Source: Spirochaetota bacterium (GTDB taxonomy: Bacteria; Spirochaetota; Spirochaetia; CADAEX01). From it: a stretch of DNA of 64,000 nt. Shown piece by piece: positions 15,001 through 21,000 of the stretch. Every line of letters starts with the position of its first letter. Position 1 is the first letter of the stretch. A program made the position numbers. The stretch is taken from NCBI GenBank assembly GCA_009786125.1, contig WQTU01000139.1:8483-72482 (forward strand), in the 5' to 3' direction.

Positions 15001-18000
15001 TCAATCAAACCGCATCATTACTATGTGGAATGAATAGCTTCGGTAACATTTCTAAATGAGGTATCTCGGCTAATACCTATAATATAGAACTCCAAATTGC
15101 TGTAATCGACCAATTCTGTCATGCGTGTTGGGGTGAGTTGAATACAGAGCTTTCAAAAATGATTCTTGTGGCTCACTTGTTCCGATGGCATCCAAACCTT
15201 TTGCTAATTCAAATCCATAACCTAACTCAGCGGCATATTTGTCGGCATCATATTCATTTTCCCGCGATGACCACATTAAAAACAGCATACAAAATTTTGT
15301 CCAAAGCCATATAATAGCAGCGAAAAACAATCCTATAATAACAGTACCAAAAGAACGACGTCTAATCCCGGAAATAAGAGAAAAAGCACCTATTATTGTG
15401 TATATTAGTTTTATGATTAGAAGTAATGTAGTTAGAATAAAATTGCCACCCCCGATTAAAAGCTGAATCTCATTATGACGATACGCTAAATGTGCTACTT
15501 CATGTGCTAAAATTCCTTGAATAACATCATCAGGTAGCTGAAAAAGCCCCTCGGTTACACAAATTGTCCTTCGCCCGATTGCGTAAGCGTTTGGTTCGGG
15601 GGAATAAATTACTTTCAAAACTATTTTATTTGTAAGCTTTGGTGTTTTTCTTTTTGCTTTATTGTATACAATTTCCAGCAATGGAATCATTCGAATTCTC
15701 ATGTCAACTCTTGTCATTTTTCTGGCTCCAGCCATTAAGCAGAGAATCCATTCGCCGATTGAAGAAAAAGCAATAAATATTGACAGGATATAAATAATGA
15801 CTATGACATACAGAGAATGAAAACCAATACTAGCGAAAAGTCCAATTATGATTAGCGCATTTAGGATAAAAAAAATAATTGTCCCAATACTTGATTTTTT
15901 AAATATATTTTTTGCTATATCCATACTCATTGTTACTGCCCTTTTCTAATCATGAATGGACAGACTTTTAATATATTTTTTTAATTCAGAATTATCGGGC
16001 ATGATATAAGGTTTATATTGGAAGATGTTTTTTACTCCATCAGAGTAATATACTGTATTATCTTTTAAACCAGCAACAGCAACGCCGTCAATGAGATTGT
16101 CAGCATCGCTGTTGCTCAAAGCAAAAATGATTCTTGCAGGAAATTTGGATAAAATGTTTTCACCATAATACATATTTTCCTTGACGCTTTGATATTCAAG
16201 CGAAGAAGTAATAAAATAAATTCCATAATTGGACCCATCGTCAATAAGCTGCAACAGTTTTTCTGAGATGGACAGGGATGGAGAGCCTGCATTTCCTGAT
16301 ACACCGAAATCAGCAAATTCATTTACGGACTTAGTGGCAATATTATCAATATATTCACTTTCATCTACGGACTCACCTTTAAACATTTTTTTTATAAGAT
16401 CAAGAAATTGCAGGTTCTTTATTACAACCAAAGATTGTTTATTATCCCCGCCCTTTTTTCTCTCTGAGTAAATTGTAAATAAATCGTTGATAATTTGAAT
16501 TATTTCTGTTCTGTTTTTTGCAGTCCTGAAACGTAAACTAAAACCGGTTAAACAATCATAAAATGCAGCCGAGATGCTTTCGCCTATTAAACTCTCTCCA
16601 TCTATACAGTAAACATTAGTATTTGTGTTCAGTAATGCTGAAAACATACAAAGGTTAGTAAGATTTTCAGCCATTTTTTCGTTTGCTCCACAAATTAATA
16701 AATTATGCCTTCTGCGCCGATCAAACTGCATAATAAATGGTGGTGCAACCTTTATGAGTGTCCCCATGTATATTTTTATAACGTTATCAGATGAAGAACC
16801 TGTTTTGCTTTGATTCAAATATTCAACAAGTGAAACCGTTCTGTTTCCTTCAAATATTTGCATCGTAGCTGGATAATCTGCATACTTTTCAGAAATAAGA
16901 GACAAATATTTTATTTGTGCTTTTTTTGAGCAATATGCGGCACGGAATCCTATATTATTTGATTCCATGTATTCCAAATTCATTACGGCTGTACCGATAG
17001 GGCCTTTCATCATTTCAATGATTTTATCATCGTTTCGATTTCCGAATAAATACCGTATATCATCCTCACCGCATTTTAAACCAATACGGATACGCATTTG
17101 TTCAATAATGCCATGCGATAGTGTCAGTTCACTTATAATTTTTGTAGTCTGCGTTGCCATCAAAAGATGAATGCCAAAGGCCCGACCTTCGGTGACGATC
17201 CGCTTAGTCAGTTCAGAGCAATTTCTGGCTACTTTGCGATTTGCAGAATCATTAAAAAGAATTTGAAACTCGTCCATGACAACTAAAATACGTGGCAGAG
17301 GATTTCCTGTGCCTTTTATATAATCAAAAAGGCTTGATTGTCCAGAATTTTTAAACAAGTCTCCACGGCGCAGCATTTCGCTGACTAGATTTTCCAATAT
17401 ACTCTCGCCAAATTCCTGCATGGCATCAAGCGCTAATAATTGAATATGCGGCAAATTGAAAGATTCATAAATCTTAAACTCTGTTCCGCTTTTAAAATCC
17501 ATCAAATACAAATGTAACTCATCTGGGCTATGGGATAACATACCACTCATAATTATTGTGTGCAGTAAAGTTGATTTGCCGGAGCCCGTAGCACCGGCGA
17601 TTATCCCATGATGTGATGAACCTTCTCCCAATATCAAGTCTACAGGGTTTTCGCCGTCGCCAATGCCCACGGTAATAGATAGTCTTTTTGCTGTTGAAGA
17701 AGAAAAAAGCGATGGACTTATAATGTCTTCAAGGGATAGACCTTTTTGTTTTAGGTTGGTAATAGCTTCTATGTATTGATTTATAAAATCGGAAATCCTG
17801 TTCTTTGATAGCTCAGGTGCTACATCAACTTGTAATCCAAAAGGTTGAAGAATATATTTTTTTTCAACATATTCCAACAAAGAACAGTGTTTTTTTATCT
17901 CTTCAAGATGTTCATCGATACTCTCATACTTTGAAAATAAGATATTTGGATTATGGCATATAACTGCGTAAATTCCGCATTTGCTGCCATTATTAAGAAT

Positions 18001-21000
18001 ATTTATTAACAACTCTATACTTCGGTTGTCAAAATTGCGGGGAAAATCAAATATAATCAACATAATAATAGGTTCGATACGATTAGGCGTGTTACTGTTG
18101 TATTCAATAATATTGGCAAAGCGATTGCCGAGCTTCTCCTGGATAAACTCGTCAATATATCTGTTTAATTTTTGCAGCGTACCTATCATAGCGTCTTGTG
18201 TGGTATAAATTTGTCCGTCAAAAATATCAGGAAGATTTTGGCGAAAATCCAAAAAAGGCGTTATGCTGTTACCCCGGCGTTCAGCATCAAATACGCAAAA
18301 TTTTATTTTTGAAACCGGAACAGAAGATAGAAAGCTCCACATTAAACCGTGTATAAATTTTATTACATGCTGCTGGACTGCTTCCGGGCAAATAATTAAT
18401 AGACTACTTTTTTCTTTAAGGTTAAAAATTGCCGGCAAAATAAAAGTTTGTGAATTTTGTGTTGTCAATTCAGTTTTTATTCTTGCAATCGTATTGTTAT
18501 CTGCTACTAAATCCAAAGGACAGGATAAATACCCTACTGAGATTTCCGCGGGGAAACTGTCTGTAACTGACGGAACTACACCAAAAGTATTGTTATACCT
18601 GTCAAGAGTATTTTTTATTGCACTTATTGCAAATTGAACTTTATCGGCATTTTCACTGTCTATCAGTTCACAGACTATAGAACCTAATAAAGCAATATTG
18701 CCGTGAAAACTACTGTAAGTGAATAAATAATTTTTGATATATCTTGATAAATCATTTCCTGCAAGGGCTTCATTATATGTTACCCGAAGATTGTAGTAGA
18801 GGAACATATCAACCGCTTGTTGGATGATAATACTGTTTTTTACATGGTAAGGCGGCAAGGCATTTCCTGACTGTACTCTATATACAATTACGGTATAAAC
18901 ACCAAGATTTTTTCCATTTTCAATAATGTTATTTATCGATGCTACATTTTTGTCTCCCAATGCTTCGGGAGAGTCGAAAACAATTAAAACCTTTATATCT
19001 GGTGTTGCCACTGTATTATTGCAAATACTCAGTTTTTCTAATGTTTCCCTTATTTCCTCATTGGATGTTTTTACTCCTCCATTAAACAGTTCCGGTATTT
19101 TTTTGATAAAATCCATATATGAAGACACATTTTTTCCCTGACCTTCTGAATCTATTATGCTGAAAGTCAAATGTGTAACCGGGGCAAAAGCAATAAAACT
19201 CTGTATTATGGAGCTAACAAGTTGGTTTTTAAGATTGCTATTTACCGTATATTTTACAAGTAAATTCAAATTATCGCTTAAAGAAAATACAAGAGGAAAC
19301 CTAAGTAATTTACTTTGTGAAATAATGGCCGCACATTTATCTTTAATAAGTGAAAACAAAATCTTGGAACTCACAAATAATTCTAATGGATAGTCAATAT
19401 TCCCTAAGACAATAGTATCATCCCATGCACAATAGCTTGATGTTATTCCTGTAAAGTTACTAATATAGCGTTCATTAATTGTTTTTAATGAACCTAACAG
19501 ACTATCAGGTAAAATCTTATCTAACTGTTCACAAATCTCATCAGCCAATATTTCTACGTTGCTTTCATACCTTGATTTTATTTTAGACAGTTCTGCTTGA
19601 TACTTTGATTCTATTTCCTCAGTTTTTTTGGCATGAGCATCTTTCTCAGCTTGTGTTGAATCATTGACCAGTTCAGCTATTGTTTTTTTGATTTCTTCCA
19701 TTAAATTTTCTAGTCTTATTTTCAGAACAATTAAATCTTCATAGTCTTGTTTTCGTTGTTTTGAAAAGGCAAAGTTTATACCATCAAAAAGAGCAGGTAA
19801 TTTCTCTTTTGAATATTTTAATGAAAGTGATTCAAATTGTTTTTTAACATTTTCTAAGGCTAAAAAAATGTCAGGATCATCAATGGTGGTTATTTCGGCT
19901 TTTTTTCCCAGCTCCTCTGTTTTAAGATCTCGCGCTTTAACATAATATTTATCAGCATTTGCCAGAGAAGTATCCAATGCCAATACTTCTTTATATATTT
20001 TTTCAGCATTGTTCTTTAATTCGGCACCTTTTTTTCTAGTAACATTAGCACTACTATCATATTGCCCAGCGGCATTTGACATGAATTGATTATATTGTTC
20101 TTCCAAGCTTTTTTTTGAGTTTTCAAAATTATTCCATAATTGCTGAATTCTCTGATCAGATTGTTCTGCAAAGGAATTAATGTTATTAATGAGTCTCAAA
20201 ACTGTTTGATATGTAATTTTACTCATATAACGCTCTCCTTAGCCATTTATGATTTTACTTCTCATACTTGCATTTTTTGCCGCATTTTTTTGAAAAACCA
20301 ACTTTTAGTGAAGTCGTAACCTGAAGGGGATAGCTAAATATCTCAACCATTTCGCCGCCGATTTTCGGATTACTTGTATTGCTTACAAGCGTATATTGCG
20401 TAAGATTATTCAATAAACGCGGGATATAACCCTCATTGTTTGCATTAAAAATATCGAGTATCAGCTTGATACCGATTGAAGTAGCAAAATTTATATCGAC
20501 TGATATACCAGGCTCAAACTTTACTCCTTCGGTATTTTCTTGATTTGAGTATACATGATGATTGGCCTCGGCTCTTGACGAAAGGCCGCTGCCATCGCCT
20601 AAAGCGCACTCATAACATGGCAAGCCTTTTCCATACAGGTGATAAAAAATCTCACCAGCAAAAGCCCTTTCCCAAAATCCTATAGAAACAAAAGAGGATT
20701 GATAGTATATGCTGATTCTATTTGTGTACACGTCCGCAATGCGGTTGTCAGCACAGCCGATAAAAACTGTGTTTCCAGCTACACAAAACGAATCCATAGT
20801 TTCTTTTGGCAAATTCTGTACGATGCCTTCAAAAGTAATTACCTCTGCACTTGGATTAATATTAAGAATCTTTCTTTTGAGAGCATATACTTTAAAATCA
20901 CCAACATCTTCTATTCCGCATTGATGGCGGCAAATATTATGATATTCTACTATATCTGCATCAACCAAAATAAAATGCTTTACTCCAGCCCGTGCCAACT

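Follow-up and report, generated by a model that had tools for sequence, protein, structure and literature searches.

How does a motor of the T7SS (type VII secretion system) kind work without a membrane anchor of its own? The question is raised by a gene in a 64,000-nucleotide stretch of a Spirochaetota bacterium genome (GenBank assembly GCA_009786125.1, contig WQTU01000139.1, positions 8,483 to 72,482), the whole of which we call the window. On the minus strand, at window positions 15946..20226, this gene encodes an EssC/EccC-like ATPase of 1426 amino acids (aa) with no transmembrane (TM) segment, identical in sequence to a database protein from a 'Spirochaetes bacterium' metagenome-assembled genome (MAG; 181-kb contig). 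We find that the ATPase belongs to a TM-less, coiled-coil-headed branch of the EssC/EccC family with a single active site. With moderate confidence, we take it to power a T7SS-like system that exports proteins of the WXG100 type and polymorphic toxins with a WXG head.

Four modules and one working site

The protein consists of an N-terminal helical head followed by four tandem modules. Module 3 (aa 836-1120; 16867..17721, on the minus strand like all positions within the gene) is the sole canonical FtsK/SpoIIIE ATPase domain, and the Pfam FtsK_SpoIIIE match (E 1e-25; 90.8 bits against a cut-off of 24) is confined to aa 870-1027. Its Walker A motif, GATGSGKST (aa 878-886; 17569..17595), is invariant in homologues, as are D985 and E986 of its Walker B motif, LVVMDE (aa 981-986; 17269..17286). 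A motif scan of all 1426 residues returned one Walker A and one hhhhDE-type Walker B, both in module 3, and no further intact motif beyond it.

The other three modules carry substitutions at both sites. In module 1 (aa 266-545; 18592..19431) the P-loop position reads YTVNSNLKN and the Walker B strand KVLIVFD, without the catalytic Glu; in module 2 (aa 546-835; 17722..18591) the corresponding segments are CPEAVQQ and IIMLIIFD, again without the Glu. Module 4 (aa 1121-1426; 15949..16866) has CGANEKMA at the P-loop position (aa 1179-1186; 16669-16692) and VVIKN at that of Walker B. Judged by these motifs, module 3 alone carries the residues that ATP hydrolysis requires. A reading made beforehand from the DNA alone (the sequence-only reading) had called the GATGSGKST module the only intact one and cited CGANEKMA as an example of a degenerate P-loop; both statements hold, the latter segment lying in module 4. 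There, C1179, G1180, N1182 and E1183 are invariant across 16 homologues, so the dead site is conserved rather than decaying.

Modules 1 and 2 are copies of one another placed in tandem, as hhalign shows (probability 100%, E 3e-41). Compared with modules 3 and 4, they gave no significant hhalign result from a shallow alignment of 16 sequences, and modules 1, 2 and 4 show no significant sequence similarity to module 3. Homology of all four modules is accordingly not claimed from sequence, where only the module 1-module 2 pair is clear.

Predicted structures extend the comparison. An AlphaFold2 model of aa 266-1426 (mean predicted local distance difference test score, pLDDT, 77.7) aligns in Foldseek with the EccC D1-D3 crystal structure 4nh0 over 945 columns (E 6e-27), the next matches being EssC D2-D3, FtsK and TcpA. 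A second model, of aa 1-835, built with 16 homologues (pLDDT 85.8, predicted template modelling score 0.71), takes in the head and the first two modules and so is free of any canonical one; it matches EssC D2-D3 (4lya; E 2e-11, 641 columns), EccC and the FtsK motor, as well as the chains of EccC3, EccC5 and YukB that comprise only the TM and DUF parts (6umm_E, 6sgz_J, 7np7_C1 and 9qks_G). A profile of modules 1 and 2 with 19 diverse relatives aligns in register to the FtsK motor of E. coli, other residues standing at the P-loop position and the 'IDPK' strand being aligned, at a marginal E of 0.003. For module 4, besides AlphaFold2 and Foldseek, an EssC profile alignment reaches aa 1297.

All four modules share one order of secondary structure: strand, P-loop position, helix, 'xxIDxxxxG' strand, helices, Walker B strand, helix and 'G(I/V)' strand. 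Modules 1, 2 and 4 are thus predicted, from their models, to have the FtsK/EccC fold. The four FtsK-like modules first recognised in the sequence-only reading are therefore borne out by the structural matches to EccC, EssC and FtsK and by the 'xxIDxxxxG' strand found in each, and the degenerate modules do match the RecA/FtsK fold in their predicted structures, with marginal support from sequence.

A helical head in place of a membrane anchor

No N-terminal TM anchor of the EccC/EssC type was found in the ATPase by hydropathy scan or in the model. The Kyte-Doolittle maximum over a 19-residue window is 1.64, at aa 340-358, compared with 2.4-2.6 on the same scale for the adjoining M48 protease and B-box proteins described below. 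In the model, this segment forms a helix (aa 330-347) and a strand (aa 353-358) of module 1 and no membrane helix. The absence of a hydrophobic TM stretch, as originally noted, is confirmed, since the best window falls inside a folded module.

The head spans aa 1-258 (19453..20226), as delimited by AlphaFold2 and conservation. Its modelled helices cover aa 6-91, 93-114, 120-136, 156-238 and 241-258, with a disordered, low-confidence loop at aa 137-155, and together are predicted to form a long helical hairpin or bundle of ~258 aa. The coiled-coil nature of the head proposed at the outset stands, and its length of ~300 aa is to be revised downwards. Two motifs are invariant in the homologue alignment, DKYYVKxR..K around aa 92-102 and FS..RK.DY around aa 154-162; both clusters would presumably lie at the end of the hairpin distant from the ATPase body.

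An apparent association of the head with the conjugation genes introduced below was tried and dropped. By blastp, the head was present in 38 loci with E1, E2 and JAB genes and in 0 of 11 without them (Fisher p 5e-8). A hidden Markov model (HMM) of the head nonetheless matches relatives lacking these genes (loci L041, L052 and L069; E 1e-8 to 4e-11), and subfamily divergence explains the blastp pattern.

Place in the EccC/EssC family

EccC and EssC are four-module proteins made up of a DUF domain followed by D1, D2 and D3. In a comparison with EccC of T. curvata (4nh0), the score of module 3 is 72 bits for D1 (residues 276-480), 30 for D2 and 3 for D3, and the best NCBIfam match is TIGR03924, the EccCa model, which ends with D1 (E 2e-34). 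Matches to EccC and EssC (E 1e-30) are far stronger than that to FtsK (2e-9). The scores nevertheless lie below all curated equivalog cut-offs: 119.5 of 509 bits for TIGR03924, 63 of 347 for TIGR03925 and 91.5 of 778 for TIGR03928.

We searched exhaustively with modules 1 and 2 (HMMER, E ≤ 1e-3) and retrieved 1465 cluster representatives. Of 127 proteins of at least 900 aa that were examined, 103 have a single Walker A motif, and in the sampled hits a module 2-like region sits directly N-terminal of the single active FtsK domain. The relatives fall into two types, an abundant soluble one of ~1100-1160 aa and one of ~1300 aa, where two TM helices precede the module 2-like region.

Module 2 thus occupies the position of the DUF pseudo-ATPase of EccC and EssC, and module 3 that of D1. 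The architecture reads head, DUF-like, DUF-like, D1 and dead D2-like. The sequence-only reading, which called the build atypical, noted that in EssC/EccC proteins the first canonical ATPase domain is the active one. That rule is kept here, because module 3 matches EccC D1 best and the modules preceding it are duplicates at the DUF position.

With EccC (T7SSa) and EssC/YukB (T7SSb) the ATPase shares an FtsK/HerA-type fold and a degenerate DUF before the catalytic D1, and the likeness extends to four tandem modules, WXG100 partners and polymorphic toxins with helical N-terminal targeting domains. It differs from them in lacking TM helices and FHA domains and in having two DUF-like modules instead of one. 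After D1 it has one module, without a P-loop, and no third C-terminal domain, whereas D2 and D3 of EccC keep Walker A in the alignment. None of the other core T7SS components (EssA/B, EsaA, EccB/D/E, MycP and YukD/EsaB) was recognised by Pfam or NCBIfam among the ten operon products.

Proteins of this kind have been described before. In Table 1 (note 6), Zhang et al. 2012 (PMC3482391) report a TM-less coiled-coil EssC-like ATPase beside solo WXG genes in several Gram-negative lineages and term such systems 'mobile versions of T7SS'. Bell et al. 2024 (PMC11090510), in a section devoted to Type III-A CoCoNuT extensions, report homologues of EssC that begin with a coiled coil of >200 residues and have no TM or FHA region, in which the central domain alone is active and which two WXG100 genes adjoin; the authors, who cite Anantharaman et al. 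2012, suggest a mechanism different from that of EssC. A reading as a WXG-related, T7SS-like motor was thus proposed earlier, in these parts of the two papers, for related proteins, and the build is less atypical than it had seemed from the sequence, both papers having recorded EssC-like ATPases that lack TM segments, carry a coiled coil and are active in the central domain alone.

The window protein resembles this published class in having no TM or FHA region, a coiled-coil N-terminus of >200 aa and a single active central domain among tandem FtsK-like domains, in its adjacent WXG100-like genes, and in a patchy, mobile distribution across phyla. The published proteins, compared here by description only, have three ATPase domains, whereas the window protein has four because its N-terminal degenerate module is duplicated; three-module relatives of ~1150 aa exist within the same operon type (L070 and L072). 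The active domain is termed a 'D2 homolog' by Bell et al., whereas it is closest to D1 by our bit scores. Neither Zhang 2012 nor Bell 2024 mentions a link to p60, E2, JAB and E1, to a B-box membrane protein or to an M48 protease, the partners to which we now turn.

Operon and conservation across genomes

The ATPase gene is part of a tightly spaced operon, all on the minus strand, in the order WXG-like, coiled-coil, two WXG100-like, B-box, p60, E2, JAB, E1, ATPase and M48. The first product is a WXG-like protein of 78 aa (26039-26275), followed by a coiled-coil protein of 249 aa (25287-26036) and by two conserved WXG100-like proteins of 90 and 91 aa (24703-24975 and 24990-25265; WXG100 E 0.008 over the full length), an orthologue of which in L004 carries a WXG100 match. 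Three WXG100-like genes thus lie upstream of the ATPase gene in the window, and their orthologues have WXG100 Pfam matches. The B-box gene (23693..24622) encodes a membrane protein that has three TM segments and a pair of B-box-like zinc fingers (six CxxC).

Next come p60, a candidate modifier of 60 aa (23210..23392), and an E2-like protein with conserved His107 and Cys122 (22693..23208; PADLOC E2 E 1e-8, with E2-CBASS matches on orthologues). They are followed by a JAB/JAMM isopeptidase with a conserved E..HxH..S..D motif and a 200-aa C-terminal extension (21382..22368) and by E1, an adenylating enzyme of the ThiF type that conserves Cys150/Cys154 and has a four-Cys site (20255..21379). Downstream of the ATPase gene lies that of an M48/HtpX-like membrane metalloprotease with HEVAH at aa 143 and four hydrophobic segments (15070..15930).

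We fetched 73 loci (L001-L073); p60 orthologues also occur in L074-L153. The operon order was found in Spirochaetes, a Phycisphaerales MAG, a Firmicute contig and 68 species genomes, mostly of gut Clostridia, with Faecalibacterium prausnitzii ATCC 27768 and Lachnospiraceae MGB1 among the carriers. The genes for p60, E2, JAB and E1 stand directly upstream of the ATPase gene in 53-57 of the 73 loci, and the M48 gene, the conserved last gene of the operon, is seen downstream in 34 of 73 within the fetched stretch. Catalytic residues are conserved in E1 (Cys150/154 and the Cys4 site), E2 (His107/Cys122), JAB (H93/H95/S103/D106) and M48.

The conjugation module is missing from about one-fifth of the ATPase loci. 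In L041, L042, L045, L048-L052, L054, L060, L069 and L071, which include Blautia glucerasea and Hazenella coriacea, p60, E2, JAB and E1 are absent and only WXG-like genes stand beside the ATPase gene; some ATPases of this subset lack the head and module 1.

Some variants of the ATPase are longer, at 1750-1770 aa, owing to ~340 extra residues inside module 1 rather than at the N-terminus (P0003-P0014, P0019 and P0021; for example L003 3038-8287). These residues make up a CbbX-type AAA+ domain with AAA_lid_6, matching CbbX at E 3e-55 and ESX-1 EccA1 at 3e-48, which is placed after the 'ID..G' strand and before the Walker B-like one. It offers another type VII parallel, a like domain being found in EccA, the CbbX-type AAA+ chaperone ATPase of ESX systems. 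EccA, however, is a separate TPR-AAA+ protein, whereas the domain is inserted in module 1 of the variants, and the window protein lacks it.

Near-identical operon order in termite-gut Phycisphaerales and Defluviitaleaceae MAGs, together with a p60 that is 100% identical in L006 and a dip in G+C content over window positions 14000-22000 (ATPase, E1 and M48 genes; 33-36% against ~39-41% in the flanks), suggests that the operon was recently transferred horizontally. Near the operon, at 26583..26933 on the plus strand, lies a divergent XRE-type helix-turn-helix (HTH) gene, a possible regulator that may belong to the system. A type I restriction-modification (R-M) system occupies window positions 510-12068 on the minus strand, HsdR being encoded at 510-3740 and HsdM at 10527-12068. 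Between them come a gene of the RhuM family (8718-9788) and one of the Schlafen/AlbA_2-HTH kind (9817-10530). This stretch is defence-island-like and lies 4-15 kb from the operon.

p60 and the conjugation enzymes

The best-conserved small gene of the operon is p60, with 60-100% identity compared with ~45% for the ATPase. The family measures 54-60 aa, with a core of ~54 aa and an invariant C-terminal motif, P-x-G-K-L-A, which is the true protein end in 31 of 47 distinct sequences; the others continue for one to four residues or, in one (L068), into a zinc-ribbon tail. The window p60 ends in KLA followed by RRG, and divergent members repeat VPxGxFA near the N-terminus. When metagenome loci were found via p60 alone, E2, JAB, E1 and ATPase genes lay downstream in 31 of the 32 with enough downstream sequence.

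We regard p60 as a candidate conjugated modifier, because its terminal or near-terminal KLA fits a C-terminus that a peptidase uncovers before E1 activates it. Pfam, NCBIfam and the PDB gave no relative of p60; descent from ubiquitin, YukD or Pup was considered and set aside, the PDB profile search having returned only spurious matches to designed TIM barrels. A resemblance between the p60 core (aa 12-38, ALRGGEDVVVTPSGEVEF) and the C-terminal tail of the B-box protein (aa 272-298, AQAGLRESVVTISANGEIIRNF) was likewise discarded as not significant (hhalign E 0.11, probability 0.5%). Two further small open reading frames (ORFs) on the minus strand, one of 80 aa between E2 and JAB (22432-22674) and one of 76 aa upstream of p60 (23450-23680), were rejected as modifiers, tblastn having found no counterpart in other loci. 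At the position of the 76-aa ORF, L001 has a 79-aa ORF with a similar lysine-rich N-terminus.

E1, E2 and JAB conserve the catalytic residues of a ubiquitin-like conjugation set. No beta-grasp modifier with a C-terminal Gly was recognised beside them: p60, the one small partner that is conserved, has a terminal motif ending in Ala. The set resembles Cap2/Cap3 of type II cyclic oligonucleotide-based antiphage signalling systems (CBASS) and the Bil system, which comprise E1, E2 and JAB enzymes, separate or fused, with conserved catalytic residues and in which a substrate C-terminus is exposed or trimmed for ligation, as may also hold for p60 from its terminal motif. It differs in that the candidate modifier is 54-60 aa long, ends in Ala and has no detectable similarity to ubiquitin, YukD or a solved structure, and in that the module is tied to an EssC-like ATPase. 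No CD-NTase or cyclic-nucleotide-activated CBASS effector was found among the ten operon products (Pfam, PADLOC and NCBIfam).

Full-text searches for WXG100, EssC or FtsK with JAB, ThiF, Cap2 or Cap3 returned no paper on this operon; Burroughs 2011, Burroughs 2012 and Anantharaman 2012 fall outside their coverage and may mention the link to E1, E2 and JAB. ThiF and M48 also go unmentioned in a survey of T7SSc-j variants.

WXG-headed toxin cassettes

In many Clostridia, the slot between the ATPase and M48 genes holds one to several genes encoding proteins of 230-420 aa whose N-terminus resembles WXG100 (Pfam WXG100 E 5e-6 in L015) and whose C-terminus varies, the domains found there being ADP-ribosyltransferase exoenzyme (E 3e-32), C39-like peptidase and WHH/colicin DNase. 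Examples lie at 14355-15131 in L004, 14495-15361 in L023, 14470-15726 in L036 and 14380-19597 in L015. A small gene, the candidate immunity gene, usually follows the toxin, and some loci have several such cassettes. Pairs of a toxin and a small gene are a layout typical of secreted polymorphic toxins. The Phycisphaerales copy, like the window operon, has no toxin slot.

The earlier suggestion that the motor might have no function in secretion at all is disfavoured by the three WXG100-like genes and by the WXG-headed toxins paired with small genes in the clostridial slot.

Proposed mechanism and alternatives

We propose that the ATPase would assemble as a hexamer, as in FtsK and EccC, with the three dead modules serving as a scaffold and as substrate- or partner-binding rings. 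The helical head may replace the TM-plus-stalk segment and dock the ring on the B-box membrane protein, the M48 protease or both, and ATP turnover in module 3 would drive WXG-type hairpin substrates to or through a membrane channel. A soluble motor recruited to the membrane by partners had been envisaged from the outset. Its solubility agrees with our results, and recruitment is a reasonable inference because a B-box protein with three TM segments and an M48 protein with four are encoded beside it.

The p60/E2/JAB/E1 module, for its part, may tag or regulate a component or the cargo: JAB would trim p60 to expose the terminal Ala, and could reverse the tagging too. We advance only tentatively, as a possibility that we would not yet favour, the fuller version in which export is gated by ubiquitin-like tagging: E1 and E2 would activate p60 after JAB has trimmed it, and its ligation to cargo, motor or membrane dock would license or target the export of WXG toxins by way of the soluble EssC-like motor.

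Several points weigh against an export motor. The TM-less coiled-coil EssC-like branch is known from sequence analysis alone, and the fold assignment of modules 1, 2 and 4 rests on AlphaFold2 and Foldseek because support from sequence is marginal or not significant. No channel-forming component was identified. The window organism and the Phycisphaerales host are diderms, and the operon offers nothing to account for the crossing of an outer membrane. The window operon has no toxin cassette, its M48 gene directly following the ATPase gene; in L003 and L004, M48 comes immediately after the toxin gene and a candidate immunity gene is missing, an arrangement that would fit an intracellular effector. 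Related ATPases, finally, sit inside CoCoNuT defence loci, as described in the relevant section of PMC11090510.

The last two of these points lead to the strongest rival, an intracellular defence or abortive-infection device. Here a cytoplasmic motor would unfold, assemble or release WXG-headed effectors on phage attack, and the Cap2/Cap3-like module would prime or restrain the system, as in type II CBASS. The missing TM segment fits such a device, and the nearest PADLOC and NCBIfam models of E1, E2 and JAB are those of CBASS-type E1-E2/JAB proteins. The authors who found coiled-coil EssC-like relatives within CoCoNuT restriction loci suspect 'a different mechanism' (PMC11090510, the same section), and the window holds, at a distance of 4-15 kb, the type I R-M system together with its RhuM and Schlafen-like genes. 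Most loci with a variable slot, however, hold toxin and small-gene pairs, sometimes in multiple cassettes; the operon conserves two membrane proteins, and no whole-system PADLOC match was obtained beyond E1/E2/JAB and generic FtsK/HerA models. We consider defence unlikely.

Less probable again is a tag-directed unfoldase. By analogy with Pup and Mpa, or with ubiquitin and the proteasome, p60 would be ligated to targets, the head would read the tag, with module 3 then threading the tagged protein into M48. The smallness and high conservation of p60, its invariant terminal PxGKLA, its near-constant company with the ATPase (31 of 32 loci), the place of M48 as the conserved last gene and the long helical coiled coil of the head would all suit this scheme. 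Yet M48 was seen in fewer than half of the fetched stretches, the head occurs in relatives without p60, E1, E2 and JAB, and tag binding by the head would be an analogy only; the WXG100 genes and toxin cassettes are left unexplained.

A DNA translocase of the FtsK, TraB or TcpA type moving mobile-element DNA, to which the Pfam FtsK_SpoIIIE match, the FtsK motor and TcpA coupling protein among the structural matches and the G+C dip over the operon might point, is very improbable and was rejected, since EccC and EssC match better than FtsK and the genes conserved around the ATPase encode WXG100-like proteins, toxins and conjugation enzymes, while neighbourhood tblastn and Pfam scans turned up no relaxase or integrase gene, the window contains no tRNA gene and Pfam gave no FtsK gamma-domain match on the ATPase.

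Significance

The ATPase class is already in the literature; of greater interest is its conserved association here with a ubiquitin-like conjugation set of its own, whose small partner is novel. For the soluble branch, the operon family supplies a conserved parts list: a motor, two membrane proteins, WXG carriers and WXG-headed toxins, and a full E1/E2/JAB set with a 60-aa partner. How a T7SS-type motor can work without its own membrane anchor is a directly testable question, because the operon has hosts among cultured gut bacteria, namely F. prausnitzii ATCC 27768 and Lachnospiraceae MGB1.

Bacterial ubiquitin-like conjugation is known mainly from antiphage systems. If conjugation does control export here, the operon would join it with type VII-like toxin secretion among gut commensals, a field kept apart from it until now. 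It would represent a secretion or delivery system gated by its own conjugation cascade, with a modifier that has no recognisable similarity to ubiquitin or YukD, and such a tagging-gated system would be widespread in human and animal gut Clostridia and would have been transferred to spirochaetes and planctomycetes.

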